Shown here: positions 6,961-31,385 of the stretch, one piece after another
Layout: every line of letters starts with the position of its first letter
Position numbering within the stretch: the first letter of the stretch is position 1
Source of the DNA: Catajapyx aquilonaris
Lineage: Eukaryota
Reading direction: 5' to 3'
Length of the DNA: 42,940 nt
Assembly (NCBI GenBank): GCA_000934665.2
Contig: JYFJ02003371.1
Coordinates: forward strand, 1 to 42,940
Notes under the pieces: generated by a model
What the model was told of the DNA's origin: nothing
Seen by the model: only the letters and a program-made list of their open reading frames with translations
Databases searched by the model: none
Translations under genes and position numbers: made by a program

Positions 6961-7339
6961 TATGTATTATAATATGCTCCCTGTCCAGATTGAGAAGATG
7001 GTCAAGGAGGTGTATAGTACTCAAAATGAAAAATAAAAATAATATCCGACGCGTGTACAGTATAGGAGGATTCCGTTGTTCATGTCCATTACATTCACAT
7101 AAGCTTGTGCGACCTTGAACAAAAAAAAAATATTTCGCCTGCGGCGGATTTTTCTCGGTTGTGTTCGTTTTACCTTTTGCAGCGCGTATTTTGCGAGATT
7201 TTGAAAATTCCTAAGGACATATTCGCATGTATGTAATATTTTCCCCCCTAATGCTTCATTCATAAAACGCAGTTTTAAAATGTGCGGTAATTTTCGGCGA
7301 AATACGGTATTTTTTTTTTGACTCGGGTGATACGGTAGC

Positions 7340-10500: not shown

Positions 10501-13500
10501 AGATTTCTGCTTTCAATATGGCTGCAATATGCACTACTACAAGACTACATGCCGATTAATGAAATCTGTCAAAAATGTAATATTAGCTCACCCAAAAATT
10601 ATGAAGGATCAAAATTTCCGAAATTTTCTTCTGCCGTCTTCTTTGTGCAAATTTTGTGCCTGGAAAACTATATTTTCCCACCGAGGGCCAAGAAATGGTA
10701 TGTTATACCCAAGGTGAGGTGTGAAAATGAGTCCGTTAATCAGGAGTAAAATGCACAGGGCCTTATGGAAGCATGCCGGGACCGGCCTTCATAACCAAAA
10801 GTCTGCATAAGGCTGCTTTATCCGGATTCAACTGTAATAATAAGTACAATCCGCTCACCCCAGAGATTTCGCTAACCCAGAGATTTCGCTAACAATATGG
10901 CGAGGTGTAAATAGGAATTGACATTGCTAGGTGGTGGAATCAGGAACAAATGAGGTATTTGACGGAGAAAAAAATCATAACTTAAATCCTGCAGCAGGTG
11001 GAACTGCGAGGTTTTGAACACAGATCCACACCGTCCTATTGACGGAGAAGGAAAACCCGGAAAAATTTACCTTGTTGTTTTAGGTTGTTTGGTCTTGCAA
11101 TAGGGACTACCGTCCCTACAATATTCGAATTTTCCAAATGCGTGCGGAACAGTGCCTGTTCGCATGGCAACAGTCAGCCATTGTTGATGCCATTGGCACC
11201 ATTGGTATTGTTGAAATGTCATTTGGTTGCCTTAGTTTAGTATTGTGTTGACAGGTTGCTACTGCAACAACAAATGACAATGCCATATGGAAGCAGGTTG
11301 CATGAAAACATGGGTACGAAATGGGTGATCGCAGGACAGACAAACAGACTTTACCTTTTGTAACAATACAGATAACAGTGGCAATGGGGTATGGTCATCG
11401 AGACTAATGTGCATGTTGTTCATATTCATTTGTAACGTGAAGAGGTGAAGGTCACCACGGAATATACGGCAGCTTCCCCGAGAAATCACCTAAATTACCT
11501 CCCAACTTTCCCTTCCTACAAACAACGTACTCTCACCTCAAACCCAACAACATCCCATACGAAAACATCCTTTCCCTCTCCTTGGAGAAGCAGAATAAAA
11601 AGGGGGAAGCTGCCGACCAACAAGGTGAGAGTCAGAGTCAAGCCGACCAGCAAGAGACACTCAAGCACTCGTCACTCGAGGGGCTCGGGGACTCATCACT
11701 AGAGACCTCGAGTCAGAGGCACTGACACGGTTACGGTTGTGGTGGTGTACGTGTGATTGTACCTGCTGTGCTGAGGACAGAATTAAATGACATTTAGAAA
11801 GCAACCTCCCGTCTCTGATAATTCACCGGAAAGTGCCCCTCCCGGCCCGTTGTGGCCCGGGCACCTTACCTACGTCTCCCTGACCCAACCCTGTCCAACC
11901 ACCCCCCTATCCCAACCATCCCCCATCCTTATCCCACCTTCCCCCATTTGTCACGTTACACATTGCATACCCGGAGCGTTCGAAAATTGATCATGTAAAT
12001 GGGCCTTGACTGTGTACCTGCTCATTGTTTTGCAACTGGAAGTAATTACTGACAATTGACAATTCTTTACCCCTCTCACTCCATTCACAGACTGAGTCGC
12101 AGCCGGAGCTAGAGCATGTCAACTTGAAGGTTGTGGGGCAGGATGGCAGCATCGTTCAGTTCAAGATCAAGAAGCACACCCAGCTGAGGAAGCTCATGTC
12201 CGCTTACTGCGAGCGCTCCGTCAGTATCTCCAGTTGTTATCTCTGATTTGACATTTGCATTTTTGTTTTTTTTTGGTTGTTTTTTTTTGGCTGTGCGGTA
12301 GTAAAAATACTGTAGCTCAAGATGGCTCTGAATGAGATCTGATGAAGCAGGCCCACTGTCAGTTTGTGCTGTACTGTACAGCTATGGAAAGCAACCAACA
12401 GTGATTGGTACTTGTTTATTATTACAACCTGGTCTTTGCACGGCCTGTTTCCATGGTAATGTAATCAACAGCTGTTGTTAAAGTCATACTAATGTACGGA
12501 AGATGAGAGAACGATCTGACGTCACCAAAGGTTTCCAAGGAAACACCCTCACCGAACAATAGGAGTAAACAGTGTCGACAAAAAAGCAACAATGGAAGAA
12601 GCGATGACGTCAGATCTTTCTCACGTTTTCCGTACATTATATATTTTTCTAGCATCCCATAGTTAAAGGGGAAGGCCCTTTTCATGCAAACAAACATACC
12701 CCCAAAAAATGTATTATCTCAATTTACTGTTTGGTTTGGGAACTATTGTGAATTTATGACCCCCCAGTTCAAAAATTCAGCAACTAATTATTAGGCAAGC
12801 ATATCTGTGTTAACATGTCGGCAGGAATTGCTAGAAAGTCTTGTCCCATGTGTCCACAATAATTCTTACGCAATTTTTTTGTCAGTTATGGCACCATGGT
12901 AAGTGTCAAATATTTTTGCGTGGCACCTAGTTCATATTTTTCATGATTAATAAGTCATTTCACAACAAAAAAAATTAATATTCCCTACAAAATGCTCTAC
13001 CGTATTTTTACAACTGTGCGGCATTCATATTTGGTAAAACAAAAATTGCTTTTGAACCACTTTGGGTGCATTTACATATTGGCAAATTTTCTGACCAAAC
13101 TTTATTTTTTGGCATAAACAATATTTTAAAGTTATTATCATTCAGATTATTATTATTGTTGTTGTTATTATATGATTGCAGCCGCTTGAACTACTATACT
13201 TGCACAGACATGACCAAAAAACCCGAAATTTGTCACATGTGAATGACCTTTTGTGGCAGTGACTTCTGCAATCTCATTGTTAGCAACAAATTCTGCGCAG
13301 ACTTGCATTAATTATGTACATTAAAATTTTGCAGATGCATTTGTCTGGCCCAGTGCTGCATTGATTTTGGATAATTTCCGCGATGATCTTATGACGTGAT
13401 CAATTTGCAGGGCCTTGCTGTCGGGACGGTTCGCTTCAGATTTGATGGGCAGCCGATCACTGACACGGACAGTCCGACCTCCCTGGAGATGGAAGACGGC

Positions 13501-13548
13501 GATACCATCGAAGTCTTCCAGCAGCAGACCGGTGGACGGGCGCTGTAA
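7552..13548 (+). CDS. SUMO: Small ubiquitin-related modifier (SUMO2/3-type, Smt3), 96 aa; exons 7552-7575, 12091-12219, 13411-13548
   Basis: Spliced product: [96 protein letters not shown]. Both introns are phase-0 GT-AG, and AATAAA lies at ~13775. Exons 2-3 are unambiguous; exon 1 was assigned from the ATG context, donor site and size. Confidence 0.95.
8327..8587 (-). mobile_element. tRNA-derived SINE with a V-domain-like core, in SUMO intron 1
   Basis: Minus strand: A box (ggtggcggagtggtta), B box (aagttcgatcccc), core gttctctccgtgttcgcgtgggttttctcggggttctcccgtttcctccc, then a (TTA)n tail. TSD taacaaga at 8319-8326 and 8588-8595. Confidence 0.88.
8697..9901. mobile_element. Non-autonomous foldback/DNA element with ~160 bp inverted termini
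   Basis: 8697-8856 (...gtaagacctctgtggcggaatgaaagtactgaaacaaggcaggcgcacgtaagaccttcaccaattgatttaagctgtacc...) is the reverse complement of ~9746-9901. A diverged partial copy of the arm lies at ~8155-8220. Confidence 0.7.
9911..10399. mobile_element. Possible piggyBac-like non-autonomous element
   Basis: The ends ttaaacccattcgcaatacc and ggtagcgaaggggttaa are imperfect inverted repeats bounded by TTAA. There is a subterminal gccatcgcc / ggcgatggc match. Confidence 0.45.
10405..10834. mobile_element. Tc1/mariner (pogo/Tigger-like) MITE
   Basis: The ends TA-cacttgaatccagataaaaca and gctttatccggattcaactg-TA are imperfect TIRs with TA flanks. Confidence 0.6.
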
Positions 13549-13916
13549 TCTCTTGGAAATTCGTTACCCCTGGATTCTAGCTGATCCTGGCAAGGACATT
13601 TTAAGGGAAAGAGGGGGACTTGGTCCAACGTGTGAAGGATCGGCAAAGGAATTCTAGGTTTTTTTTATTGTTTTTTTTGCTGTTCGGGGAACCTGCTCTC
13701 CAAGATCTCATTCTTCGGAAGAACTATGTGTGCGTGTGTGTCGATTATTTTTAAAGGGTTAACTAAATCCTAATAATAAAGTGGTGCTTCAAAAATGCAG
13801 AAGTTTATTGTTTGGAAGGCAAAACTGTTGCATGTCTCGGAAGGAGCTCGTAGAACGCTCGTAGAATAATTCAGTTCACATTGCTGCATGTTCTACATCC
13901 ACATTTTCACACCAAG

Positions 13917-14277
13917 CCCCAGCTCAAGCCCATCGTCGTCGTGAAGGCTGTTGGTATGGATGGCAGGGTCATGAGGTTTAAGATCAAGAAGACCACCTGC
14001 CTTGGACGCTATAGGTGGCTAGTCTATTGTGGCGTGCATGTCAGTATCTCTCGCTGACCCATGAATGGTTTCTCATGATAAAACCAATTTATAGAGGCTG
14101 CCACAGCACCAGCTACGCTTCCTGTATGATGGCTGTCACATCAACCAAGCCGACACTCCCCTCTCCATGGACATGCGTGAGGGAGACACCATTTGCGTCT
14201 TTGAAGAACTGATCAGGGGCATTTTGACAGCTGCTGTGAATGTTCAGTGTGAGGTTCACAGGTTTGATTGTCACTGA
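13917..14277 (+). CDS. SUMO-like unit 1: duplicated exon 2 + exon 3 pair (13917-14039, 14095-14277) with no evident own first exon; alternative SUMO 3' exons or pseudogene
   Basis: PQLKPIVVVKAVGMDGRVMRFKIKKTTCLGRYRWLVYCGVH|RLPQHQLRFLYDGCHINQADTPLSMDMREGDTICVFEELIRGILTAAVNVQCEVHRFDCH*. The frame is open, the GTCAGT donor and intron position match SUMO, and LIRG replaces QTGG. The first acceptor (AAG) is weak. Confidence 0.7.
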
Positions 14278-14974
14278 CGGCTAATATAGTCGCCCATCCA
14301 ACATTAATCTTACACCTGTCAGCCTACGTATGTGGAAAAAGCTCAACCTGATGAGGATGTTGCAGCAAAAACAGACACGTGCACATAGCGTGAAAGGAAT
14401 GGATGAATCAGAATTTTGTGCGTGTGTTACTGTGGTGAATAAGTCAATTTTCAAGATTTTCCCGAAGATGTTGCGCATCAAGACCATTTATTTTTAGGAT
14501 TGTAGCCTGGCAAATAAACTGTCGTGAAAACTTGCCTATACCTGGTGGCGACCCCAGAATTTGTTGCATCGGAGAGTTTGAGTGGGGAATCCTTTACACA
14601 TGAAGACATACAAAACACTATTGCACTGCTTTTCACACTGTTTTAAAGACTCGGTCACGTTTTATATTATTATTGACTCATTAAGATTTATGTGAGCTAT
14701 GTTGTTATACGTGGCATTTCAAAATTTAATCATGTAAATTGGGAGGTAAAATATTAAATTATCACATGCTTGGGTCAGCCCCACGATAATACTATTGGAG
14801 TTACATTATTGCTCAGATTGACGATAACAGCTACAACTTGTATCACCGAGATGTTAATTTGGGCCCTCTGACTGTATCCGCTCCGTACAGTACTGTACGG
14901 AGAGGTATACTGAGAAAATACTATATACTACATAACTTAGCATACAGTATTTTTCCATTTTAGACTTTTTCTCA

Positions 14975-15365
14975 TTATACGTTTTCTCATTTAACTTATT
15001 CGACTTTTTCTCAATTAAAATTATACCCTTTCTCATTTAAAATTAGACGTTTTCTCATTTAAAGAAGTTATAACGGCTGTCTGTCTGTCTGTGAACAGGT
15101 ATCAGGGCATAAACCACCAGAGATAGCGGAAAACGGTTTTCGGATTCGGATTCAGCATGGCCAACATAGATTTCATGGCCAACTTCCGGTGACCGTCCAC
15201 TTCCGGTTTTCAGGGTCCACTCCTCTTATCATCCAAGGTCAAATCTGCATGCTTTAGGAACCCATTTTCCTTAGGTTGGCAACGAGAAATAAGACTTGTT
15301 GTCCTGCTGGCAATGAGAAAAAAGTATACTCGAATCGCACCCGAGTGATTTGACAAATGTTGGTT
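14975..15365 (+). mobile_element. DINE-1/Helentron-like non-autonomous element
   Basis: Repeated ttatac(cc/g)tttctcatt subterminal motifs, a (ctgt)n microsatellite at ~15078, and an inverted copy aatgagaaaaaagtata at ~15312 followed by a short hairpin (aatcgcacccgagtgatt). Confidence 0.55.
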
Positions 15366-15430
15366 GGTACTACATCATAGTTTAATTATTTTACGAAAGG
15401 AAATACGACGTCACATATTACGCTGCACTT

Positions 15431-15500
15431 TGCGCATGCGCGCGTCCCCAGCCTCGGTGCTGCCGTCTATAAGCTGAGCGAGCTGAGCTTTTACATCTCA
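15431..15500 (+). promoter_or_regulatory. Putative TATA-type promoter of SUMO-like gene 2
   Basis: TGCGCATGCGC (NRF1/Ewg-like) at 15431 and TATAAG at 15468, about 110 bp upstream of the ATG at 15576. Confidence 0.45.
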
Positions 15501-15575
15501 CTGACTCACTTAGTGAGACTGAGGAGGTGTGTCTGCTGCCCCTGTCTGCACCAGACAGAGACAAACACAGCAACA

Positions 15576-16134
15576 ATGAGCCGCTTCCTGGTGGGCTACA
15601 AGCAACTAGCCTTAGTGAGTATATACAGGGTGTGTCATATAATAAGGTTCGGTCACACATGCGGAGAAGGTCACACTTTATGTAGAGGTGTCGTTTGGTC
15701 TGAAGCCTTGCTAATGCACATATCATTCCCACTCTAGTGTATAGTAAGTGATGAGGAGCCTGCTGAGTCTGAAAAGGTCGTGATAACTGTCTATGACAGG
15801 ATGGGTGACGGGGTGGCCTATACGGTGAACAGAACTGTGAGGTTTGAGAAGATCATTGCTCATTACTGCAACTTTAATAAGGTCAGCATCCGCTTATTCT
15901 GTCTCCTGCATGCATCAGGAATTTGTTTCTGCGATGATTTAATCCTGCTATTTTTTTCCACAGAAAGTGCCAATGTCCCACATTCGCATGGAGCGCGGTG
16001 CGCAGCAGATTGCTTTGACTGACACCGTAGCCTCCTCGGGTTTGGAGGATGGAGACTTCTTTGAGATTCACCTGCTGATGGACCCGACTGACAACATACG
16101 TCTAGAGGGATCTCCAATGTCACGTCAGGCTTAA
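15576..16134 (+). CDS. SUMO-like gene 2, single highly divergent domain, 117 aa; exons 15576-15614, 15738-15881, 15964-16134
   Basis: MSRFLVGYKQLAL|CIVSDEEPAESEKVVITVYDRMGDGVAYTVNRTVRFEKIIAHYCNFNK|KVPMSHIRMERGAQQIALTDTVASSGLEDGDFFEIHLLMDPTDNIRLEGSPMSRQA*. It has SUMO's exon structure and phase-0 introns, AATAAA at ~16406, and no di-Gly. Confidence 0.8.
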
Positions 16135-16850
16135 GTGGGCGCTGCAACGGTGCATTGGTCGATCCTAGCTGCACCATGCACGACTCTAACGTTTCACTCT
16201 AGTTATTATACGGGTGCTAATTGCTGTCTGCGTGAGCCTATAGATTCTCTGAGAACGTCGAAGAGAAGTTGTGCAATGTTGGCATAAACGGACTCAGAAT
16301 CTATGTATTTTCTTATTGTTGTTTTGGACGTATTCCAAAGATCTCATTCCCATTTTGTATTCCAATGTTTCCATTATTTTTTTTTTAAAGAGCTGATTCA
16401 TGACCAATAAAATGTTGCCAAAGATGTCAATTATTATTCCTTGAAACTAATGCATCTAGAACTACTCATTGTGATGTCGGTTGTCAAGTCAGGCATATGG
16501 GTTATAATATAAATTTCAAATTCACACACATTTCATATTTCATGTGACGATTGCATCAATTGTTTGTAATTGAACAAATGCTAAAATTTAAATGAAGAAG
16601 CTTTGTCAACAAAATGTCCGTACAGGCTGCGGACAGGTATTTGCTCAATAATTGTTAAACTTGCACAGCACATTTCATATGAATATGACTGCATCGTCAG
16701 TACCAGGTATGTCAATCATCATCACCATCACCATCACGACATTTCATTCCCTATAAGGGGTAGTCAGCGATGACGGAAGCCGTAAGCTAACCCAAAATAT
16801 GAACAACCGGTATGTAATTGCAAAAAATGCTAAAATAATTTTAGCGTATA

Positions 16851-17131
16851 AGAGGCGCAAACATTCGATTTTCGCGTCTCTCTGTTTGGGGTGTTGACAA
16901 GGCTGGCGGCCATCTTGAAGTGTGGGGAACGCCAACGAGGTATAAATAGGGCCATCGCGCGTGTTCTTGCCGTGTAGTTGCCATGGCCGCCAAAACCATC
17001 AAAGATGGCGGACCCTATTTTTGCCTGTACCCTATTTATACCTCGTTGGCGTTCCCCACACTTCAAGATGGCCGCCAGCCTTGGCAACGGCCCCAAACAG
17101 AGAGACGCGAACATCAAAGTCGTTGGGCCTC
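16851..17131. mobile_element. MITE family B, copy 2
   Basis: Same TIRs as 6665-6960, with a degraded right end. Confidence 0.8.
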
Positions 17132-17569
17132 GTCAGAAACTGGAGTTATTTCGGTAGTTAAACTCTAGTTAAATCCATTGCCATTAACCATGGGGGTTAA
17201 TTTTTTGAAATTCCCGGTTCGAGCCGTAGATGTGGCAACACCGCTGGCAATAATGACAAAAAACCCGCAATAATAACTTTCCAATCAATTTTTAACCCCA
17301 ATTAATGACAGCCGGAGGTCCTTGTGTGACCAAATTAAATTAAACAAATTCCATCGAACGTCACCTGTTGCGACAGAGGACCGATTGGCAACGCCGCAAT
17401 GGAACAACGAAGAAGCTCGAGAGGATTCCAGAGCCCGCGTCTCTTTTCCTTTCCTCCAGAGTTCCAGAGAAATTCCTCCGGGATCAAATGACAGGAAGGG
17501 ACCACCAGGGTTCCTGAGGGCATTCCTGAGGGACTGGGGATTTTTGTTCTGGGCACAGGAAGAGCAGCC

Positions 17570-18211
17570 ATGGGCACGACCGGCAATGGCTCGGTGAGTG
17601 CGACATATGCGTCGAAGGGTGATTCAGGGACAATGTAGGCTGCAGGGGGTCATCTATTACTAATGGGAGGGTCATTATGTCACTATGGGTGTCGATTGGG
17701 CTAGGTTTGGCCTCCTGAGGGTCGACAACAAGGGATTAGTAGGGGTCAATACCAAAGGTCATTGACCGGGACACGTCAGGTGACACTTTGATAAAATTAG
17801 AATTGGTTCCAAAAATGTCAAAAAATGCTCTTTCATTTTGTCCTGAAGGGCTTCATACATGTGGTGCCTGAGTCGGAGTACATCACCATATGCGTGTATG
17901 ATCTGGACGGCAGTTGCGTGATGTTCAAGATGAAGAAGACTATGCAGTTTAGGAGGCTCATGTTGTGGTACACTAACCGTGCGGTCAGTATTGCCGTCGC
18001 ATCGTTTTGATGGATTTAATAAGACGGAATGAATTTACAGGGGGTGTCGATGTCCAGCCTCTGCTTCGAGCACAATGGTCAGCGCATCGGCAAGACCGAC
18101 ACTCCTCTTACCTTGGGCGTGCAGGATGGAGATTCCTTTGTCGTGAACCTCTTGAGGCATTGCGTGTGGACTGGAGACGCCATGGAATTTACTATGCATC
18201 GTGGCGACTAA
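17570..18211 (+). CDS. SUMO-like gene 3, single domain, 109 aa; exons 17570-17593, 17849-17983, 18041-18211
   Basis: MGTTGNGS|GFIHVVPESEYITICVYDLDGSCVMFKMKKTMQFRRLMLWYTNRA|GVSMSSLCFEHNGQRIGKTDTPLTLGVQDGDSFVVNLLRHCVWTGDAMEFTMHRGD*. The 24-nt first coding exon is the same length as in SUMO. Confidence 0.85.
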
Positions 18212-18730
18212 AGACAAGTTCCGAGAGGGGGGGCGCTCTACATGGTTTTTCACTCTCGTTTTTTGTATGCGAATGACAATCTTCTGGCTGTGAGCCTGGA
18301 TCCTGAGGAAGCTCATGATGTTCACGGGAAGAAGGCAGTGTTTGAAGAAGCATCTTGCCACCCTTTTTATTGTTATTTTGGAAGACTCACTTTCGATGAT
18401 CTCATTGAGAAGTTTTGTATGCCAATTTTTAAAAAGCTGAATCGTGACCAAAATAAAACGGTTAATGGTTATTGTTTGTCAACTAAAATTAACAAACCCG
18501 TTCGAAATATTCAGGAATATCAGTCGTGCCCGAGGTCGTGCCATGATGGCGTCAATGATTGTTGTTGGTTACAATGCTATGGAAACAGGCTGTGTTTGTT
18601 TGCTTGTTTGTCCATGGCAACCATTGCGCAAACACAAGATGCAGATGAGATTCATCTCCTTTACGTTGCCCAATAATAACCTATCTTTAGCAGTTCATTC
18701 AACGGACATAATGGGCAACCAAGTCGCTAA

Positions 18731-18842
18731 AGGCCGGTATCAACGTACGAGATTCTCGCATACGCATGCCCAGATACGAGAAAGTTGAAATATATTTCAA
18801 CTTTCTCATATCTGGGCATGCGCAGTTGGCTCCCCGCGGCTT
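18731..18842. mobile_element. Internally deleted copy of the 3696-3870 MITE
   Basis: taa-aggccggtatcaacgtacgagattctcgcatacgcatgcccagatacgagaaagttgaaa...gcgcagttggctcc matches the first copy. Confidence 0.75.
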
Positions 18843-19392
18843 TAACAATGAAAGTTTTGTGACCTCAGTACGCTTTTATTGCAAGGTCAGATTGTATCGC
18901 ATTCAAGAAAAACAATGAGAAAAACAAGAAAACAGGCGTGTTATCCCCCCCCAAAAAAACCAGATTGTTGACGCCAATTAAATTCCAACCATGCGAAAAC
19001 TTATCTTGACATTCCCGCAATTCTTGCCATGATTTTGCGAAGTGGCAATGCTGCACTAAATTACGTAACAAACTTTTAGCCACTGCACTGTGTGGCATGT
19101 TTATAACAATAATTGATTGGGTATTCGGCTAACCCCATGCATGTTTATAAAAACCTTTATTTACAGCAGGAAATTGTAAATGATAATGAAAAGTAAAATT
19201 AGTTCATTTCTTCCTTGTTGTGTAAGCCGATTTGGCAACGCAGTGCATGACTTAAGAGTGCAAAAATTTGCATTCATATGAAACCAGAGAGTGTCCGCCA
19301 AGCAAAGCCGTAATTAGGGTCAGACGGAGGCGTCTCCTGGTTGTACTCTTAGGCCTGACACTGCAGGACATACCATACGAGAAGGCACAACA

Positions 19393-19988
19393 ATGAGCAA
19401 CATGCTGCATTACGAGCAGGATTACGCAATGGTAAGTGTCACATGATGATTTCGAACAAATGGTGTACTCCCTGGGTGATGGAGGATCACTTTATTATGT
19501 GTCGTTTAGTCTCGGATGATAACTAAAGTGTGCTTTTACGTTGCAAAACAACACTACCTGTGAGATAATGTGAATTGTTGCGATTGGGTGATTTTCCGCT
19601 GTATTCGCAGGGTTACGTGCATGTCGACCCAGAGTCGGAGTACGTCTACATCGAGATCGTCTCGGAAAAGGCTGGGCTGCTGGTGCTATTCCGCACGAAG
19701 AAGACCGCACCGCTTCAGGATCTAATGCTGCAGTATTGTGCACAAGAAGTATGTCCACTTCACACCTTCCAGTTGCAATTATGTACACATTAATTTATTA
19801 TCAATTATTTTCAGAGGGTGCTGATGTCCGACATTCGGTTCGAGCTGAATGATCGGCTAGTCAAGGAGACTGATACGCCAAACTCACTGCATATGCAGGA
19901 GGGCGATTCCTTTGATGTTTACCTGCGTACTGACCATTTCGGACCTGGACAGCTGATGGAATTTGCGATGCCCAATGTCCGGGATTAA
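19393..19988 (+). CDS. SUMO-like gene 4, single domain, 116 aa; exons 19393-19431, 19611-19748, 19815-19988
   Basis: MSNMLHYEQDYAM|GYVHVDPESEYVYIEIVSEKAGLLVLFRTKKTAPLQDLMLQYCAQE|RVLMSDIRFELNDRLVKETDTPNSLHMQEGDSFDVYLRTDHFGPGQLMEFAMPNVRD*. The frame is open and the splice sites are canonical. Confidence 0.85.
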
Positions 19989-20076
19989 TCCTACTCACGT
20001 TGTACGCACCTCGACTGTCTGCTGGATTTGTATTCTAGTTACACAGCGATGTAGTAGCGAGCTGAGTCAAAAGAAC

Positions 20077-20636
20077 AGTAAGGTGAAGTGGGGTAAGTGC
20101 ATACACGGGGTAAGTGCATAAACTGGCCGCCATATTGGAATGAAAATGGCTCACATGCTCACCTCTTGTGATGTGCAGCTACACAAAAGAGTGCCTGACA
20201 TGTTTTGGTGTCGTCAGCCATTTTCATTCCAATATGGCGGCCCCGTGTACGCACTTACCCCGTGTATGCACTTACCCCGTGTACACACTTACCCCCGGTG
20301 TACGCACTTACCCCGTGTATGCACTTACCCGGTGTAGGCACTTACCTTGTGTATGCACTTTATACCCCGTGTATGCACTTACCCCGTCTATGCACTTACC
20401 CCGTGTACGCACTTACCCGGTGGAGGCACTTACCCCGTGTATGCACTTACCCCGTGTACGCACCTACCCCGTGTACGCACTTTCCCCGTTTATGCACTTT
20501 CCCCGTCTATGCACTTTCCCCATCTAGGCACTTTCCCCGTCTATGCACTTTCCCCGTCTATGCACTTACCCCGTCTATGCACTTTCCCCGTGTATGCACT
20601 TACCCCGTGTATGCACTTACCCCACTTCACCTTACT
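20077..20636. mobile_element. Foldback element whose TIRs contain a 17-bp minisatellite
   Basis: The left end agtaaggtgaagtggggtaagtgcata mirrors the right end tatgcacttaccccacttcaccttact. There is also an inner inverted pair, ccgccatattggaatgaaaatggct / agccattttcattccaatatggcgg. Confidence 0.8.
20241..20625. repeat. 17-bp tandem repeat (gcacttaccccgtgtat)n, about 22 copies
   Basis: The tandem array is directly visible and explains the repetitive ORFs annotated at 20140-20761. Confidence 0.95.
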
Positions 20637-21402
20637 TTAATGTTCGAAGCGGGAGGAATGCAGGTGGTTTATGCCATATGCACATATATCATGTGCCATT
20701 GTCATTACACGTTACGCTGTCACTTACACCTGAGGGCGTAAGAATTGTTAGGCGTTCATGAGAAGATGCTGCATGTCTATTGTTTGAACGACCAGACGGT
20801 TGACAATCTACTTTTTATTATCTCACCCTTTTGTACTTTACATGTCCATTACTTACAAGAGTTGCATAATTGGTATATTAATAAAATGTTTGCAATAATG
20901 CTGGTGATTGTTCTTGAATCTAAAATGGGCCACATTTTATGCATATGAGTGTTGTACTAATTGCCAAAAAAAAAAAAGTCATCTGCAACAATATTGGCGA
21001 CTAAAATTAGCAATTTTTCAAGACTTTTTTTTGAAACTTCCCGCCTATTATTCGAACACGTTCTATAATCGACATTTGTGGAATAGATATGGCAACGTCG
21101 CAATAACATTTAAGTTCAATAAATGAGAAAATGACAATTTAAACTATCATCCGGAAATTTAATTATAAGCCGTTGATTAATTAATGTGAATTAATTAGAA
21201 CAGTGTTGCCAGGTGTATGCTTCAGATGTGGCAACCCCGTACAATTTCGAACGTGTGGTTCTGGTCAAAGAGCTTTGGTTCTGGTGTTCTAATCCTCTGG
21301 TTCTAATCCTATGTTCCAAAGGTCGTTCCAGGTCAGTTCTCCTTCCCTGTTCTCTGGGCCTGCCTTCCCCTATTACACCGGAAGGACAAGAAGCTGCTGC
21401 CC

Positions 21403-23207
21403 ATGGACCGCATCAACTACGCCAGCAGCAATCATGGCCTGCTGAAGCCTGAGTGGATCAACTTGAGAGTCTTTGGTCGGAATGGCAATATGATATTTAA
21501 AATGAAGAAGACTGTGAAGCTGAACAAGCTGATGGAGAAGTACTGCGAGCGTATGGTCAGAACTTTCACTTTTCTCTTCATGCTAAGTTCCGTAGCACAG
21601 GGTATAACAAATATGGCTTCAAACAAATACACGATCTAGTAGCATGCATCACTAGTTAATGGTCGGTTTCACTGAGCTCGGTAAATGATAAAACCAGGTT
21701 TCTTTAGGAAAATCCCTAATGTTTGTATGGGTTTTCCGAAAGAAACCTGGTTTTATCATAACTCGATGAAACCAGTCCATTTAAAAAAATAATCTGAAGA
21801 TTTCTGCTACAAAATTGCGGGTGTCTGAACTGATGATGACCTCGTGATATCTTCCAGGTTCTATTGAGGTCTGACGTTCATTTCTTGTTCAATGGTCACC
21901 GTATCGCTGGAAGTGATACTCCTGACTCCATGGGCATGAAGGAGAGAGACAACATCAAGGCTGTCGTGCGTTGTCCTGATGGAAGAGAAGGACGTGTCCA
22001 GCGTTTCAGCGCTACAACTAGAAAGGTAGGTCTTTGTTGTCGTTTTTGAGGCCGTCTCAGGGGTCATTTATGCGGAGAACCAAGAAAACTGGACCAGAAT
22101 TTGGTCGATGACAAAGTCGTGTTACCTCACTCCTATGAGAGGACCTCACTCCATCCAGCATTGGAACAAAATTAGTTAAATGATATTTACTCATGTTTTG
22201 CCAGAGTACTTATGCTCCTACTAACTTTTCACATTAAGGCCCATTCACACAGGCCGTCGACGGTTTTGGTCTTTGGTCCGTGGCGTCAATGCGACCAAAG
22301 ACCAAAGCCAGCGACGACCTGTGTGTGTGGGCCTTTATGCGCACATTACTGACAATTGCATTTCTGTTTCTCTGCTCTATCCACAGGATCACCTGAAGCC
22401 TGAGTGGATCTACTTGAGAGTTGGTCGGAATGCCAATATCATATTTAGAATGAAGAAGACTGTGAAGCTTACCAAGCTGATGAAGACGTACTGCGAGCGT
22501 ATGGTCAGAACTTTCACTTTTCTTTGATGCTAAGTTACGTTGCACAGGGTAACAAATATTGCTTCAAACCGGCCCATTTCAATAATAATCTCAAGATTTC
22601 TGCTACAAAATTGTGGTTTACGTGTGACTTGGTCAATAGTTTCTCGAATGAGAATGATTTCTAACCTTGTAATCTTGTGAAATTATTTTTAGGAGCTGTT
22701 GAGGTCCAGTGTTTCGTTCCTGTTCCGTGGCGAGGAGATCCCTGGCACCGCCACACCTGACTCCTTAAACATGAAGGACAGAGATCGCATTGAAACTGTC
22801 AATTCTCTCTCTCGACTCCAACCGAAGAATCACATGGGGTCCGAGAGAATCATCTTGAATGTGTTTGGTGAGGATGGGCTTCTCCTCAAATTTAAATTGA
22901 AGAAGACTACGAACCTTGCCTACTTGATGGATAAGCATTGCGAGCATCAGGTCAGTACTTCCGACATTATTTTTTTCTGATTTGAAGTCACATTTTCAGA
23001 TTTGGTTGAGAGCAATGGTTTCCAGATGGACTTGTCCACGAGTCAATTGGAATTAATCACATGATATATTTCCAGGGGTTGTTGAGGTCCACTGTTCTTT
23101 TCATGTTCAACGGACAACAGATCAAGGATGGCAACACTCCCAGCTCGTTACGCATGAAGGACCAAGATCGCATTGACACTCGTATTTTAAAAGCTCCAGC
23201 TGCCTAG
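21403..23207 (+). CDS. SUMO-like gene 5: three tandem SUMO-like domains, ~275 aa; exons 21403-21555, 21858-22025, 22387-22503, 22693-22950, 23076-23207
   Basis: Domain 1: MDRIN...KPEWINLRVFGRNGNMIFKMKKTVKLNKLMEKYCERM|VLLRSDVHFLFNGHRIAGSDTPDSMGMKERDNIKAV... Domain 2: DHLKPEWIYLRVGRNANIIFRMKKT...YCERM|ELLRSSVSFLFRGEEIPGTATPDSLNMKDRDRIETV... Domain 3: ERIILNVFGEDGLLLKFKLKKT...HCEHQ|GLLRSTVLFMFNGQQIKDGNTPSSLRMKDQDRIDTRILKAPAA*. All exon lengths are multiples of 3. Confidence 0.85.
21660..21779. mobile_element. Short palindromic MITE (family C) in an intron of gene 5
   Basis: ggtcggtttcactgagctcggtaaatgataaaaccaggtttc...gaaacctggttttatcataactcgatgaaaccagtcc. A better-preserved copy lies at 28556-28683. 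Confidence 0.75.
22237..22334. mobile_element. Small MITE with TTA TSD (Harbinger-like) in an intron of gene 5
   Basis: tta-aggcccattcacacaggccgtcg...cgacctgtgtgtgtgggcct-tta. Same family as window positions 1-61. Confidence 0.8.
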
Positions 23208-23829
23208 GTTTGTAGTTCGGTCGGGGTGAGTGATCAATGGTGAACCCTGAACAAGTATTTGGTTGCATCTTGTCATAAAAGGGTTTAGGAATAAACTGGT
23301 ACCAACTATGAATAATGAGGATCAACCACTTGCACAGAATTTATTATTGATCATTGATTTTGCAGTTATTGCGTACGTAGGTCCTAATTAATCTCTCTGC
23401 TGTAACCCTAGGTTTTGTGGAAGTTGAACTGAAGAATTAAGATAAAGAGGATGTGCTCGACTGTTGGAAGGGAATACCATGCCACTTTTGTGTTTCCTTC
23501 CCTCCTTTCCGAGCACTCACTACGAGATCTCAGGTTTCATGAAGTTCATTGTTGTTAACGTTCGAATTGTTCAAATAAAATGTTTTGGAATGGACGTGGC
23601 AATGCTGCAATGAACCACTGCAATTTCCTTTTTAGAAACTTTCAAAAGCCAAATTATTAGCGAGTAAGTGTTGCCAGGTGTCTGATTAGGTTCGGATGTC
23701 GTGGCAACCATCGTTGGAGTCTGTGCTGTCAAACGGAACAGAATAAAGATTCTTTCCAGGTCGGTTCTTCTGTCCCGGGTTTGCATATAATCTGGGCCAA
23801 TGTATGCTTCCACATACGGAAGGACTGCC

Positions 23830-25837
23830 ATGGACCACTCGGGAGGCTGCTGCACCAGGCATGGCTTGAAGACGGAGAGTATCAAGTTGAACGTTGTTGG
23901 ACAGGATGGAAGCACTGTCATGATGATGAGGATGGAGAAGCAGCGAAAGCTTGAGAACCTGATGGAAGCAGTTTGTGTCCGTCAGGTCAGTGTCGCTTTA
24001 TTACCACACTTGCAGCATATAGAATGATTTTTTTGGTATGACTCTCATCATGGTGTTTGCCAATTCCCAGGGGCTGCTGATGTCTGATGTTCGTTTCCTC
24101 CATAATGGTCACCTTATCGATGAAAGTGACACCCCTGCCTCCTTGGGCTTGCAAGAGGGTGACAACATCCGTGTTGTCGTTCGGCCGGGAAGAACGATGT
24201 CCAACATTTCCACATCGGTATACTTCTTGTTCTATTCACGGCTATAATTATGTAGGATACTTTATATTGACACCTGCTGTGCGTCTATTTCCCCATTCCA
24301 TCCACAGCAGTTGGAGCCTGAGAAGATTGTCTTGAATGTCTTGGAGGAGGTTGGCCATCAAAAGATATTTAAAGTGAAGAAGACCGTGAAGCTTATCAAG
24401 CTGATGGAGATGTATTGCAGTATTGTTGTCAGTAATTTCACTTTTTCTCTGATGAATTGAAGTAATATTTTCAGATTTGATTAAGAGCAATGCTTTCCAG
24501 ACTTGTCCGAGTCTGTGTATAGGAACTATTGCAGTCCATTTATTGTAAGGAAGTGATGTGGTTCTGACATGAATCAAAAGGCAAAGCGCTTGTTCTTGGC
24601 CAGTTGTACTGTACAGTACGTCAGTGCGGTACATCTCACTAACAAAATGATTTTTTATTTTAAAATTACCCCAGTTGATCTCAAGATATCTGCTTCTGTC
24701 TGCCTTGCTCAACATTTCCTGGAATTCGAATTATTTCTCATCTCTCATGATTTCCAGGGGCTGTCGAGGTCTGACGTTTGTTTCCTGTTCAATGATCACC
24801 TTATTGCCGGAAGTGACACCCCTACTTCCTTGGGCATGAAGGAGGATGACAACATCCAGGTTTTCTTACGAGTTGGTGTGTCTCTTCCGGAAGGAAATGC
24901 CCAGCGTTTCAAGGCACAAGCTGAAAATGTAGGTTGCTACGTGTAGGTTCCTGTAAATCCTGTTTTGATTTTTTTTTTCTCCGCCATCGGTGATTAAGCT
25001 GTTGACAATATTTTTTTTGCTGACGTGCACTTTTGTTTGTGATTGAAAATAATTTCTTGGACTATGATGGCCACTGGCGATATATTTTCCTTCCTCCGCA
25101 GCATGGCTTATTGAAGCCTGAGTTGGAGAGGATCACGTTAAACATTCTTGGGCGAGATGGCAGCATTCTCATGATAGCAAAGCATCTGAAGCAGCAACAG
25201 CTTCAGAGCCTCATGACAAGATTTTGTGACCATCGGGTCAGTATCACTAGTTTCAGCTTCAACACTGGCTGGAAGGATGATCACATGATGTAATCAATTT
25301 CCAGGGGCTGCTGAGGTCCGATGTTCGTTTCCTCTATAACGGCCACCTTATGATTGAAAGTGACACCCCTGCTTTCTTGCGCATGAATGAGGGAGATTCC
25401 ATCCAGGCTGTCTTACGAGTTGATGTGTCTCCAACAGAAGGACGTGCCAAAGGTTTCGAGGAACAGGCTAAAAATGTAGGTCTTTGTTGCCTTTTTTTTT
25501 AATGTTTGCCACATTTTGTCGTTTATGTAGAGACTTCCTGACTCCATCCACAGAATCACCCTGGAGCATGAGAGTATCACCTTGAATACCTCTTGTCAGG
25601 ATGGCCATCGCATGATTTTTAGAGTGAAGAAGACCGCCAAGTTTATCAAGGTGCTGAAGATGTATTGTGAGCGTCGGGTCGGTACTTCCACATACCTCTA
25701 TCTGATTTTAAGTAGGGCCAATTCCAACATGAAAATTCAAGTACGTTTCTCTCTCTGGCAGCTCCACACCTGCCTCCTTATACATGAAGGACCAGGATCG
25801 CATCGATGTTGTCATTCTAAATGTGCTGGCTGCCTAG
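23830..25837 (+). CDS. SUMO-like gene 6: three intact plus one degenerate tandem SUMO-like domains; exons 23830 (or 23800)-23985, 24071-24217, 24308-24427, 24758-24928, 25102-25236, 25305-25475, then 25531/25554-25677 and ~25742-25837
   Basis: Domain 1: MDHSGG...ESIKLNVVGQDGSTVMMMRMEKQRKLENLMEAVCVRQ|GLLMSDVRFLHNGHLIDESDTPASLGLQEGDNIRV... Domain 2: QLEPEKIVLNVLEEVGHQKIFKVKKT...|GLSRSDVCFLFNDHLIAGSDTPTSLGMKEDDNIQV... Domain 3: HGLLKPELERITLNILGRDGS...|GLLRSDVRFLYNGHLMIESDTP... The 4th domain carries a +1 shift at its homologous acceptor and a deletion in its last exon. Confidence 0.75.
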
Positions 25838-26042
25838 GTTTGTACACTTACAATATATTAGAGGTTCATTGGAGAGGTCACAATGACCAATAATATGACT
25901 GCATGTCAACAGTGTAACCGGAAAAGGGCCAGGGAACGTTTGTTATTCATTGTTGTGAGCATTGTTGGATAGGCAAACTTTTGCGGATTTGGATGTACTT
26001 GTTCTGTGTCCTTCTCATCAGCCTGGGACTCTGGTGAACAGA

Positions 26043-27014
26043 ATGGAGACTTTTAGCAGGAATATTTCCTGGTGTTCACAAGAAACCTTGTCTGCATCTA
26101 GTGTCGAAGCGACTGATGAGGAGGAAGAGTCTTTGGACAACTCATCGGTAGACAGCAACACTGCAGGCGAACAGGACCAGGACCAGCAGGTGAACAGAAA
26201 TGCAATTTCACGAACTTTGACGACTATTGTGTATCCCCCCCACACTTAATCCACAGCCTGACTTGAAGTCGGAGTTCATCGAGTTCAACATTGATTTTTC
26301 GGACGACAGCATGATGGAAGTGGAGATGAAGAAGACCGCGCGGTTTAAGAAGCTGAAGGTAGCTTTTTGTCGCCGTCTGGTCAGTATCACTACCGCATAT
26401 CTTGTTGATCACATGAATCCGATGCAGAACTCTGAAAGCAATGATTTATGTGATGATGTGCTCAACTTCCAGAAGCTGTTGTGGTGTCAGGTCCATTTCC
26501 GGTTCAACGGTCGCGCTATCTTTGGAGGTGACACCCCAGCCTCCTTGGGCATGAAAGAGGGCGACTACATCAAGGCTTTCATACAGGTGATTGAGGCTAG
26601 ATTGTGATTATAGATTATTTCCAGGTATATTATTGACAATAAAGGTGATTTTTTTCCCCTTCTGCATCTGCAGGATGTTGAGAAGGAGGAAGTGGAATAT
26701 ATCCACCTGAAAATCATGGAGCAGGATGGGGAGCATTTGAGGGTCAAGATGCCGTGGATTGTGGATTTTGGATGGGTGTTGATGGCATATTGCGATGTTA
26801 GGGTCAGTACTTTGCACTTTTCTGTGATCTGAAGTAGAAACATTTTGTCGGCTCATTATATTATTGTCAGGATCTGCAGACGTCCGATGTTTACTTCACC
26901 TTCCGTGGCCAGAAGATCCTCGACAGCTCCACACCCGACTCCTTAGATATGAAGGACAGAGACAGGATTGAAGCTGTCATTCTAAACCCGCAGGACGCAA
27001 GTGCCGAACAATAA
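26043..27014 (+). CDS. SUMO-like gene 7: acidic Ser-rich N-terminus plus two tandem SUMO-like domains, ~218 aa; exons 26043-26189, 26257-26379, 26473-26586, 26674-26802, 26871-27014
   Basis: METFSRNISWCSQETLSASSVEATDEEEESLDNSS...QDQQ|PDLKSEFIEFNIDFSDDSMMEVEMKKTARFKKLKVAFCRRL|KLLWCQVHFRFNGRAIFGGDTPASLGMKEGDYIKAFIQ|DVEKEEVEYIHLKIMEQDGEHLRVKMPWIVDFGWVLMAYCDVR|DLQTSDVYFTFRGQKILDSSTPDSLDMKDRDRIEAVILNPQDASAEQ*. AATAAA lies at ~27129. Confidence 0.85.
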
Positions 27015-27658
27015 GACCAGTGGTTTCAAATGACAACAATGCACGGATCAACCACACTCTTATTGTTATGATTTATTTGGAGGGAGTCATTTACAAAGAT
27101 ATGATTGTGTATGCCCATCTTTACTTTTAATAAATATGCGGCTTGAAACCTAATGATGTTTATTGCTTGGAGACACTAAAGTACCTGACAGGGTTTTTTA
27201 ATTATTCGTTTTATGAAATATATGTAATGGCTGTATTGTAGAGGAGGCGGAAAAATGTGTTGTGAAACATTGTTGCCCCGGCTAACAATGACCTGAAAAG
27301 GACTTGAACGAACTTGTTTTAAGATATTTGAAACTTTATTTCCCGCTTATTTCGAACAATGTTCCAATAATTGACATTCGATGTGGCAACACCGCAATCG
27401 CATACCTCTTCGTCAAATTTTTTTTTTAAACAAATTATAATTTAAGCACCAGCATTAGCTCCAATCATTCCGTTGATTAATAATTAAGGCATAATTAACA
27501 ACTGGATGTTAAATATTATTGCAATAGTGCTGACTGTTATGTGGCGATTTGACAACCCCGCAGCGGGAGCATTCGATTCTTGTTCATGTCTGGGCAGAAC
27601 AGGCCAGAGGTCATTCCAGGTCACCTCTTTTTCCTAATTGCCTGGTTCTGGTGGTGAA

Positions 27659-29769
27659 ATGGAGACCTTCTCTGATGATATGTACTTGGCTCTGGAGGAA
27701 TCCCTGACCGCTGCTGCTTCCACGCACGATGGTGGCTCATCATCCATGGACCACTCTGCTGCTGGAGGCAACACTTCTGCAGCTGGACAGGTGATGAAAC
27801 AAGTTCTTATTAGAATATGCCGGCTACATATATAATAAGGTTACATTTATTGAGAGGGCAAGTCCTGGTCCAGCAGCCACACCTTCCCTAATACTACCAC
27901 ACACATATTCCTATCCCTCACCGCCACATCACCTCCTAGAGCAGCCCAAGAACAAAGCCAAGTCTGTTATCTATGGATGATGTAATCATTTGGAGACACT
28001 CAAGGGAGGAGGAGGACAATGGCATTGACTGGGAAGCAACCAGTTGATTTCCTCAGACTGCGGATGATGGGCTGCTCGGGTTGGCTGCACGGTTTAAATC
28101 AAGTGTTTTTTATTTTTTTTAAAAACCATCATGGTTTTTTAAAATGAAAAGTAATCCCAATTACTGCTAAAATTCCCCTTCCAAAGCTGAAGGGGAATCC
28201 CCACGTTCCATGGGAAATCCCCTTTAGCAATATCCAATCATACAGTGGTTATTGCCTGGTGTGCTGAAGCAAAGAGCTGTTTGTGAAATTTAACGGAAGA
28301 GCATAGACCGGTTTGGCTAAGTTTAATATATTGCTGGTAGAAAACGTGATATATTGTTTGGATGTCATTTGATGAAGTTAAAAAAAGAAGCGAGAAAAGG
28401 TGTAAGGGCCAAATTATGTAAAAAAAATGGGCCAAGTAGCCAGAATGAAAAATCACCTATCAAAATGTGCATATCGTCGCTGGCAAGGAAAATGCCGTGA
28501 TTGTATGCAGGTAATGTATGTATATTGTATAGTCATTTATCATTTTATCTTTTATAGGGCCGGTTTCACCGATCTCGGTATATGATAAAACCAGGTTTCT
28601 TTAGGAAAATCCATACAAATATGTAGGGATTTTCCGAAATAACCCTGGTTTTATCATATACCGAGCTCGATGAAACCGGCCCTTATAGTGTTTAAATCAT
28701 TCATAAGGCTGCTGGAGGCATAGAAGACAGACTGTTAGTGCTTTTTGAACTTAGGTTAAAAGTTAAGTTAATTAGTTTTATACAATGCCACTATTTTGTT
28801 ATTTTGTTTACTTGTATTGAAACATTTAAGCGACATTTCTGTGTGAAATCTCTACATTGTAGTTTTCAAAATTAATACCATATTTTGAGATGAAGCTTTC
28901 AATTTGCTGAATAATTATAATTTTGAGCAAGATATACATTTTCTTAATCAAAAGTATAACTTATTATTTACCTCACTATGAGTTGGGAATGGGCATATGT
29001 AGATGATAAGAAGTCACAACTTGTTTAAATGAATTTAAACCAAAAATTTGAAATTAAACCTGGTTTAAACAAAAAAAAAACTGTTCTTTTTCCAACCCCT
29101 AGCTCTTGTCCGAGTTGCAAGCAGTCTGAAAATTGGCAATGCTTTGCGATTTATGTTTATATGTGCAGTTTGTTGTTTTGTGGTGAAATGCATCAATGTA
29201 TGACTCCGCTTCTGTCCTATGTTGCGGGTTTCAAAGCATTGGTGAGACGTTCGCAGGTGGTGGCAATTGCATATAAAAAACTCGAACAACAGCGGCATAT
29301 GCTCAGGAAGGAACACCCCTGCTCTTGCATTTTTAGTGTCATTTTTTCCTGTTTTGCCGTAGGATTTCTTCTCTGTACACTCCTATAACTTGCTCCTACT
29401 ATTATTATTGACACTGGTATCACATTTGCAGGATCACCTGATGCCTGACACTCTCCTGTTGCATATCCTGGGGCCGCATGATGGCCTTCAAATTGGATTT
29501 AAAGTGAAGAAGACCATGAAGCTTGCCGAGATGGTGGCAGTGTATCGCAATGTTTGTGTCAGTATACTTCTTTTTCCCTGATTTTCATACAGTCGGCTAA
29601 GAGTTTCCAGACCGACGCTTATTGTAAATCTCAATCTATTTAACAGGGAAGATCCGACATTTCCTTCATGTACTGCTCCCGGGAGATCACCGACAGCTGC
29701 ACTCCTGCCTCATTACACATGAAGGACCAAGACCAGATTTTTGCTGTGCTGAAACAGCAGGCCATTTAG
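27659..29769 (+). CDS. SUMO-like gene 8, N-terminal extension plus single domain, ~126 aa; exons 27659-27790, 29432-29557, 29647-29769
   Basis: METFSDDMYLALEESLTAAASTHDGGSSSMDHSAAGGNTSAAGQ|DHLMPDTLLLHILGPHDGLQIGFKVKKTMKLAEMVAVYRNVC|GRSDISFMYCSREITDSCTPASLHMKDQDQIFAVLKQQAI*. Exon 1 is homologous to gene 7 exon 1 (METFS); its joining across the 1.6 kb intron is inferred. Confidence 0.75.
28556..28683. mobile_element. Palindromic MITE family C with TAT TSD
   Basis: tat-agggccggtttcaccgatctcggtatatgataaaaccagg...cctggttttatcatataccgagctcgatgaaaccggccct-tat. Confidence 0.8.
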
Positions 29770-30410: not shown

Positions 30411-31385
30411 ATGGCCAACTCCGTGGTGATCAACGCCACTGGCAAACACACCGCAACGGTGAGTACGCACCCTGAAGTACTCCGCATGCGACTAACTGAT
30501 GCAAATTGGCCAATAAATCAATGCCTATCTTTCCCCAGCTGATTTTCCTACATGGACTTGGCGATACAGGGTAATAGTGCGTACATAATTCATTGTCGGG
30601 GGCGGAAAAGCTGACGGATTTATTTGGTTGCAGGCACGGCTGGGCCAGCACCATGGCCATGGCTAGGCAGCCGCACGTCAAGGTCATCTGTCCGACAGCG
30701 TAAGTATTATTGACCAACAAAAAAAATCAATCGATTACCTAACCGGTTTTCCATCAGTCCGACAATGCCAGTGACCCTGAATGCGGGTTTCCGGATGCCC
30801 TCGTGGTTTGACCTCCGCACGTTGGATGCTTCCGGGCCTGAGGATGTGGATGGGATCAAGAAGGCGACGGATGTTGTGCATCAGATGATAGACGAGGAGG
30901 TGAAGAAAGGGGTGCCGTCGGAAAGGATCGTGCTCGGAGGGTTCTCTCAGGGCGGAGCGTTGGCCTTGTACTCGGCCTTGCGCTACCCGAGGAGGTTGGC
31001 CGGAGTCGTTGCGCTCTCGTGCTGGCTTCCGCTGCATAAGGAGTTCCCAGCGGTTAGTTTGCGCAGAGTACGTAACCTGACACGATAATTTCCGCTTTGT
31101 TTTGCAGGCTGCTTTGGGCAATAAAGATATCCCGTTCATGCAATGCCACGGGGACTGCGACCCTGTTGTTCCGTATCGTTGGGGCCAGATGACAGCCTCG
31201 GTTCTCAAGCAGTTCCTCAAGCAGCTAGAGTTCAAGACCTTCCAGGGGATGATGCATTGCTCTTGTGATGAGGTGAGTTGTAGTGCACGATATGCACAAC
31301 AGGCAAATGAATTATCTGCTGGTTTTCTTTGCAGGAAATACGCGACATGAAGACCTTCGTCGAGAGGTGTGTACCTGCGGTGTAA
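30411..31385 (+). CDS. Apt1: Acyl-protein thioesterase 1 / lysophospholipase (LYPLA1/2 family), 218 aa; exons 30411-30458, 30539-30570, 30634-30699, 30758-31052, 31108-31272, 31335-31385
   Basis: [31 protein letters not shown]...[23 protein letters not shown]...[12 protein letters not shown]...[11 protein letters not shown]...[25 protein letters not shown]. The GFSQG nucleophile and the catalytic Asp and His are present. The six exons splice in frame. Confidence 0.95.

Follow-up and report, generated by a model that had tools for sequence, protein, structure and literature searches.

A SUMO gene and the domains behind it

The stretch of DNA considered here, 42,940 nucleotides (nt) of contig JYFJ02003371.1 (assembly GCA_000934665.2, Catajapyx aquilonaris) and hereafter called the window, contains a canonical SUMO gene of the SUMO2/3 type between genes for POP1 and the acyl-protein thioesterase APT1, and directly behind this gene an array of additional SUMO-like domains, none of which has the di-glycine used in conjugation. 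When the exon-2 and exon-3 peptides of the SUMO gene were used in an iterated profile search against all six-frame open reading frames (ORFs) of the window, 15 pieces of each kind were recovered, all on the forward strand and in strict alternation from 12091 to 29757, that is, SUMO itself plus the 14 downstream copies that an earlier, sequence-only reading of this DNA had reported. In what follows, D0 is the canonical SUMO domain, D1-D14 are the extra domains, A and B are the halves encoded by the first and second exon of each domain, and U1-U8 are the units into which the extra domains fall.

At the codon that corresponds to the exon 2/3 junction of SUMO, each of the copies carries a GT donor in phase 0. 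This donor reads GTCAG in 13 of the 15 domains (D0 included), the others being D4 (GTATGT) and D11 (GTCGGT), and a pyrimidine-rich acceptor follows in all copies save D11 (CAG in 12, TAG in D1 and D6). The introns of the copies are 55-330 nt long, and all modelled introns run from GT to AG with a pyrimidine tract. A di-glycine (QQQTGG) is present in D0 only: in none of the 14 extra domains does GG follow the last strand (beta5), the tails running instead into linkers or stops. Thirteen of the extra domains are intact. The broken one, D11, has an extra C (+1 nt) that shifts the frame just after the acceptor at its 5' end, a weakened donor, no B-exon acceptor, and a TGA just before its truncated B exon. 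On all these points (the shared phase-0 intron and its GTCAG donor, the absence of di-glycines, and 13 of 14 frames and sets of splice sites intact) the sequence-only reading is borne out; its limits for the array, 13917-29769, fit the first exon of D1 and the stop codon of D14 (29767-29769), and its grouping into eight units agrees with the gene models built here.

Three other accounts of the arrangement were rejected. The copies are too divergent for a duplication introduced by assembly (16-69% amino acid identity, and at most 92.8% nucleotide identity for the closest pair of exons); they have kept their introns, and so are not retrocopies; and stops at the ends of U1-U5, U7 and U8 rule out one giant poly-domain gene.

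Against a reference profile of 28 canonical SUMOs all 14 spliced domains gave matches that span the whole domain (positions about 15-87 of 100), with scores from 28.9 bits (D2) to 78.2 bits (D7), compared with 131 for D0 and 7.9 for the best of 300 shuffled control sequences. The Pfam scan was made on unspliced exon ORFs only, and hence on half-domains: 13 of the 14 B-exon ORFs matched the C-terminal half of Rad60-SLD (PF11976) at E <= 0.1, six of the 14 reaching the cut-off of 23.8 bits and seven falling below it, while D14 matched ubiquitin only and the A-exon ORFs were weak or silent. As the D12 intron is open in frame, the unspliced ORF at 26254-26604 could be folded, an alignment of SUMOs from the databases serving as input. 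The resulting model (mean predicted local distance difference test score, pLDDT, 81) is a beta-grasp of the order strand-strand-helix-strand-strand-strand, in which the intron-coded insert has low confidence; in Foldseek, ranks 1-50 were all SUMO chains or SUMO fusions, with target-normalised template modelling (TM) scores of 0.72-0.92 for free SUMO chains. A sequence search of the PDB with two queries likewise returned, among the 60 matches listed for each, only SUMOs and SUMO fusions, the best being a linear diSUMO-2. Profile and structure comparisons had been proposed in the sequence-only reading as ways of checking it, and they favour it: judged by the profile all 14 domains are SUMO-type, and one of them, D12, is predicted to fold as SUMO.

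Gene models, divergence and surroundings

The gene models (Table 1) were obtained by conceptual splicing of the sequence, with in-frame ATGs or short first exons as starting points, and comprise five single-domain units (U1-U4 and U8), one two-domain unit (U7) and two three-domain units (U5 and U6). The first exons of U7 and U8 are homologous (reciprocal matches, E 0.015 and 0.034), and in U7 an N-terminal region of 49 amino acids (aa) precedes the domains. Within the multi-domain units, phase-0 linker introns separate B5 from A6, B8 from A9, B9 from A10, B10 from A11 and B12 from A13, and B6 and A7 are uninterrupted in one exon; the linkers after B5, B6, B8, B9, B10 and B12 are all without GG. 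An AATAAA lies 85-275 nt past the stops of U1, U2, U3, U5 and U7, and U8 has an ATTAAA 128 nt and an AATAAA 260 nt past its stop.

Table 1. Positions of the array units and flanking genes in the window, from conceptual splicing (aa, amino acids; slashes mark exon ends)
Feature	Position	Strand	Details
POP1 C-terminal exons	4759-5741	+	upstream flank of SUMO gene and array
Candidate SUMO exon 1 (MAGDGDSK)	7552-7575	+	phase-0 donor AAG/GTGGGT; putative assignment
Canonical SUMO (D0) exon A	12091-12219	+	beta1-beta2-alpha1; donor TCC/GTCAGT
Canonical SUMO (D0) exon B	13411-13548	+	C-terminus QQQTGGRAL, then stop
U1 = D1	13917-14277	+	A exon to 14039, 55-nt intron, B exon 14095-14277 (stop)
U2 = D2	15738-16134	+	most divergent; A exon to 15881, B exon 15964-16134 (stop)
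U3 = D3	17825-18211	+	ATG 17825, A exon to 17983, B exon 18041-18211; 109 aa
U4 = D4	19393-19988	+	exon 1 19393-19431 (ATG/GTAAGT donor), A exon 19611-19748 (GTATGT donor), B exon 19815-19988; 116 aa
U5 = D5-D6-D7	21403-23207	+	exons 21403-21555, 21858-22025, 22387-22503, 22693-22950 (B6 and A7 together), 23076-23207; 275 aa
U6 = D8-D9-D10	23800-25475	+	exons 23800-23985, 24071-24217, 24308-24427, 24758-24928, 25102-25236, 25305-25475; 315 aa, then runs into decayed D11
psi-D11	25554-25837	+	decayed fourth domain of U6; GTCGGT donor at 25678, truncated B exon 25742-25837
U7 = D12-D13	26043-27014	+	acidic, Ser-rich first exon (METFS...) 26043-26189, further exons 26257-26379, 26473-26586, 26674-26802, 26871-27014; 218 aa
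U8 = D14	27659-29769	+	first exon (METFS...) 27659-27790, 1.6-kb intron, A exon 29432-29557, B exon 29647-29769; about 126 aa
APT1 (acyl-protein thioesterase) exon	30714-31088	+	downstream flank, same strand

The proteins are, as had been claimed for them, very divergent: they share 26-44% of their amino acids with the neighbouring SUMO and 16-69% with one another. In the tree they form three groups, D5-D14 (support 96/86), D2-D4 (95/82) and D1 alone, and their terminal branches are so long, many times the length seen in canonical SUMOs, that deep placement is unreliable. The halves of a single domain need not share their nearest relative (A6 and A5 have 92.8% nucleotide identity, but the closest to B6 is B13 and the closest to B5 is B9), and this points to unequal crossing-over within introns, by which domain halves would have been reshuffled. 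(In global alignments of exons against introns, gaps in the divergent short introns inflate identity, so that nothing was used from them beyond the D5/D6 pair and the lengths of the introns.) The B exons themselves are of two types: a 'terminal' type with MKD[RQ]D[RQ]I followed by a stop (B7, B11, B13, B14), to which B6 also belongs although it runs into A7, and a 'linker' type (B5, B8, B9, B10, B12). We also draw attention to D3 and D4, whose domains share just 43% identity but which have in common a C-terminal extension, G..MEF[TA]M....D and a stop (18146-18208 and 19929-19985); the motif is MEFTM in D3 and MEFAM in D4, which suggests a conserved tail.

Relatives outside the window were sought in protein collections. 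A word-index search with the B6-A7 ORF found none at near lengths. With HMMER, 157 matches at E <= 0.001 were obtained in a full scan of 1.84 billion representatives, and the best 12 listed, which are 30-38% identical to B6-A7, include multi-domain SUMO-like proteins with and without GG; of the 157, 150 were compared with both profiles, and none scored more than 4.6 bits better with the profile of the paralogues than with that of canonical SUMOs. The profile of the 13 B exons, run against longer proteins, gave four unrelated matches, one of them from a diatom. The suggestion that the family is lineage-specific agrees with this lack of close relatives in the protein collections, in which the host and its near kin seem to be absent, so that the blank says little.

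The window is eukaryotic in character, with short exons. The best named matches of the APT1 exon are insect proteins (77-78% identity, in Schistocerca and Ignelater), crustacean and chelicerate matches are lower, and nothing above 78% was found in the protein collections searched; on this evidence we place the host among the arthropods, most probably the insects. The SUMO gene has an AATAAA at 13775, and its candidate first exon is the sole short ATG exon with a polar peptide and an in-phase donor upstream of exon 2. Some 450 nt upstream of exon 2, an ATG-less open frame with a good phase-1 donor (GTGAGA) at 11560-11640 may be an untranslated or alternative exon. The six-frame profile search gave no significant match in the window beyond SUMO and the array, save two weak ones: an A-exon-like ORF within the SUMO intron (12680-12730, forward strand; E = 3e-5 in this small in-window search), which could be the remnant of a copy or could have arisen by chance, and a second at 1700-1747 on the reverse strand (E = 0.008).

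Repeats of several kinds are found in and around the array. A repeated element is present at 16852-17131, where it forms an inverted repeat of 280 nt (76% identity), and at about 6700-7100; very similar ORF peptides are encoded near 6765-7118, which lies 5' of the candidate SUMO exon 1. Between U4 and U5, at 20241-20623, there is a tandem repeat of 17 nt in about 22 copies (consensus CCCCGTGTATGCACTTA, 87% matches), with partial inverted copies at 20077-20126. A palindromic element of about 130 nt, resembling a miniature inverted-repeat transposable element, is present in two copies that are 82-83% identical, one within the D5 intron (21650-21786) and the other within the long first intron of U8 (28550-28690).

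Constraint, decay and a possible function

It seems probable, although far from assured, that the array encodes a lineage-specific family of SUMO-derived proteins that cannot be conjugated and that act as non-covalent mimics of SUMO or polySUMO. Such a family would have arisen from the adjoining SUMO2/3-type gene by copying of the exon-2/exon-3 module at the DNA level, so that the SUMO intron was carried along into the copies, and unequal crossing-over in the introns would then have reshuffled halves and fused domains head to tail. SUMO conjugation needs a C-terminal Gly-Gly, which SUMO proteases (SENP/Ulp) expose, as well as activation by E1 and transfer by the E2 enzyme, Ubc9. With the Gly-Gly lost, the domains should, by established biochemistry, be neither processed by these proteases nor attached by E1 and E2, and their mode of action is therefore most likely non-covalent, as SUMO look-alikes. 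Domains that have kept the beta2/alpha1 surface would bind SUMO-interaction motifs (SIMs). Single-domain proteins would thus mimic SUMO towards SIM proteins, and the two- and three-domain proteins would be uncleavable polySUMO mimics for readers with several SIMs, such as SUMO-targeted ubiquitin ligases, serving as scaffolds or as competitors and decoys, and possibly being SUMOylated themselves. Fast change in the first exon would diversify the specificity for partners.

How far the SIM-binding surface has been kept was judged at eight positions of yeast Smt3 (I35, F37, K38, I39, K40, T43, R47 and R55; conservative matches counted), which are named as SIM-binding in PMC5319795 and were mapped through the FKIKK motif, a mapping based on an Smt3 numbering that agrees with the residue numbers given in that paper. 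D1, D3, D5, D6 and the decayed D11 retain seven of the eight, D7 and D14 six, and D9 and D12 five. In addition, a psi-K-x-E SUMOylation motif (LKPE, LKTE or LKSE), which is absent from D0, is found just before beta1, in the region of vertebrate K11, in D5, D6, D8, D10 and D12. According to PMC4866545, insect SUMOs are unable to form chains because this lysine motif is missing.

A reason for thinking that the copies are functional is the state of their reading frames. There is no in-frame stop in 974 codons, as against 73 in 961 and 58 in 961 in the other two frames; and in a neutral simulation of 26 exons (substitutions only, with the terminal branch set at half the distance to the nearest paralogue, 5000 runs) a mean of 12.1 exons gained a stop, and not one run left all 26 open. 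The length differences among the 13 intact domains are all in frame. For the B exons the pooled ratio of non-synonymous to synonymous differences per site (pN/pS) is 0.60 over seven independent pairs (Fisher p = 4e-6), which indicates purifying selection, and the columns that vary among the paralogues tend to be those that vary among canonical SUMOs (correlation of column variability, rho 0.31, p = 0.0075). There is also conservation beyond the domain, in the linkers after B5, B9 and B10 and in the tails of D3 and D4.

A number of observations count against a functional family, and several of them are equally what one would expect of a graveyard, in which tandem SUMO duplicates, unexpressed or without function, had open frames only because they died recently. 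The A exons have a pooled pN/pS of 1.03 (p = 0.85; individual pairs 0.79-1.69), some pairs of whole domains are also near 1 (D8/D10 1.00, D8/D12 1.04), and seven of the nine nucleotide differences between A5 and A6 are non-synonymous; such ratios are what relaxed constraint would give. D11 is visibly decaying, the branches are extremely long beside those of canonical SUMOs, and U1 and U2 have acceptors in phase (phase 0) but, by a simple scan for an ATG plus donor, no ATG exon. For U4 and U6 neither AATAAA nor ATTAAA occurs within 600 nt of the stop, and the splice junctions are all conceptual. The SIM surface is poorly kept in D2, D4 and D8 (four of eight positions), D13 (three) and D10 (two). 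The acidic residue equivalent to Smt3 D68, which we take to be part of SUMO's contact with the backside of Ubc9, is kept only in D1 among the 13 intact domains (D12 has N and D13 has R there); PMC5319795 describes D68R as a conditional Smt3 allele, and for that contact the papers cited here give D30, Y67 and I89, D68 not being among these. The protein collections, where near kin seem absent and a blank says little, yielded no orthologues for a test between species. Finally, there is a precedent in plants, since several tandem SUMO copies with open frames in Arabidopsis are treated as pseudogenes in PMC6680281.

We nevertheless regard a graveyard as unlikely, if still to be taken seriously. At the divergence observed, neutrality should have closed about 12 of the 26 exons, and in none of the simulated runs did all of them stay open; 13 domains are free of frameshifts although intron lengths vary, donor and acceptor pairs are kept in 13 of 14, and neither the constraint on the B exons nor the conserved linkers and MEF[TA]M tail outside the domain would be expected of dead copies. 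Our reading is that frame and fold have been maintained while the first exon has been relaxed or has diversified, and some units may have died recently. The earlier proposal of selection rather than decay is supported by the frames, which have been kept beyond the neutral expectation; the comparison of non-synonymous and synonymous change among paralogues, suggested at the same time, gives a mixed signal, with B exons below 1 and A exons at about 1.0.

The want of a start exon for U1 and U2 might be accounted for differently if some units, chiefly these two, were alternative downstream modules spliced to SUMO exon 1, giving SUMO isoforms that could not be conjugated. U1 begins only about 140 nt past the poly(A) signal of SUMO, and the phase-0 acceptors of both units would fit the candidate SUMO exon 1, which ends in phase 0. 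This seems to us quite improbable, as U3-U8 have in-frame ATGs or first exons of their own, each unit ends in a stop, most with an AATAAA downstream, the AATAAA of SUMO itself precedes U1, and the assignment of SUMO exon 1 is itself putative. Very much less probable still is that U7, with its relatives, belongs in diverged form to the RENi (Rad60/Esc2/NIP45) family and does not derive from SUMO. The acidic, Ser-rich N-terminal exon of U7, followed by two GG-less SUMO-like domains, does have the RENi layout (as given in the title of PMC549199), but the domains adjoin the SUMO gene and have its intron position and its GTCAG donor, the tree places D12 and D13 within the D5-D14 group, their residues at the D68 position are those given above, and no Rad60, Esc2 or NIP45 domain was among the 60 PDB matches listed for either of the two queries.

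If the family of SUMO mimics is real, a more speculative extension of it, which we consider distinctly unlikely as it stands, is that gene-encoded, uncleavable polySUMO-like proteins evolved in place of chains, with two or three consecutive SUMO domains and, in five domains, a psi-K-x-E acceptor lysine where vertebrates have K11, seeding or imitating chains for readers of the RNF4/Degringolade type, and that the near-neutral to faster-than-neutral evolution of the exon for the SIM groove reflects conflict (for example, with viruses or in transposon control), in which the copies would be decoys of varied specificity. The array would be a natural experiment on the use of SUMO surfaces in non-covalent signalling, with domains that cannot be conjugated and frames that have been kept open. 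It would also provide a test of linear uncleavable polySUMO mimics in animals, a test that is the more pointed since insect SUMOs are reported to be chain-less (PMC4866545). If the copies were unexpressed, they would still be a clear example of the duplication of an exon module and the fusion of domains by unequal crossing-over.

Comparison with known systems

SUMO is among the most conserved of eukaryotic proteins, and is usually present in one to few copies. The statement in the sequence-only reading that well-studied insects such as Drosophila have a single SUMO gene is right for Drosophila but does not extend to insects in general, as basal insects have both SUMO1 and SUMO3 according to PMC4866545. 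With their canonical relatives of the SUMO2/3 type, such as Drosophila Smt3 and Blattella SUMO3, the array domains share the fold, the mid-domain intron and the motifs FK.KKT..L..LM..YC and DTP..L.M..D.I; they differ in having no QQTGG tail, in their very long branches and in the psi-K-x-E motif that five of them carry.

The head-to-tail arrangement of domains recalls polySUMO and linear diSUMO, and such proteins are the best database matches to the B6-A7 junction, the best PDB match being an engineered linear diSUMO-2 (4bkg). Many polySUMOs, however, keep GG in each repeat (e.g. P0001, P0004 and P0007) and could yield conjugatable monomers, whereas the array linkers have no GG and could not be cut in the way that a polySUMO precursor is.

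RENi is an ancient, single-copy family. Its members resemble the array proteins in having GG-less SUMO-like domains that act non-covalently in the SUMO pathway (the second of them, SLD2, is described as binding Ubc9 in the case of Esc2), and the acidic N-terminus and two domains of U7 add to the likeness. But RENi proteins have exactly two domains, at the C-terminus after a long N-terminal region, whereas the units here have from one to three, only U7 having two, and these behind a region of just 49 aa; and the array sequences are nearest to SUMO and have lost the D68 equivalent in 12 of the 13 intact domains.

The closest parallel is with the DSUL/GSUL2 locus of grasses, with its diSUMO-like and SUMO-like concatemers, described in PMC6680281 as tandem, diversifying SUMO paralogues with head-to-tail fusions, several of the concatemers being without internal and/or C-terminal di-glycines. 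The features in common are thus a tandem array, rapid diversification, duplication with head-to-tail fusion, and loss of di-glycine. The grass proteins are, however, of independent origin in plants; in the present arthropod case all 14 domains are without GG, the array lies directly behind the canonical SUMO gene, and the SUMO intron is present in every domain. The array is therefore an analogue of DSUL/GSUL2 and not a member, common descent being excluded by the taxon (as judged from the 77-78% identity of the APT1 exon to insect proteins). In the literature searched, supplements apart, we found no description of such a SUMO-like array in an animal, but tandem SUMO-like arrays as such were already known from grasses (PMC6680281), and the kind is therefore not new. 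The interest of the present case lies in its animal setting, in its scale of 14 domains, and in the link to a chain-less insect SUMO; as a second independent case beside that of the grasses, it would suggest that there is a recurrent evolutionary route from SUMO to families of this kind.

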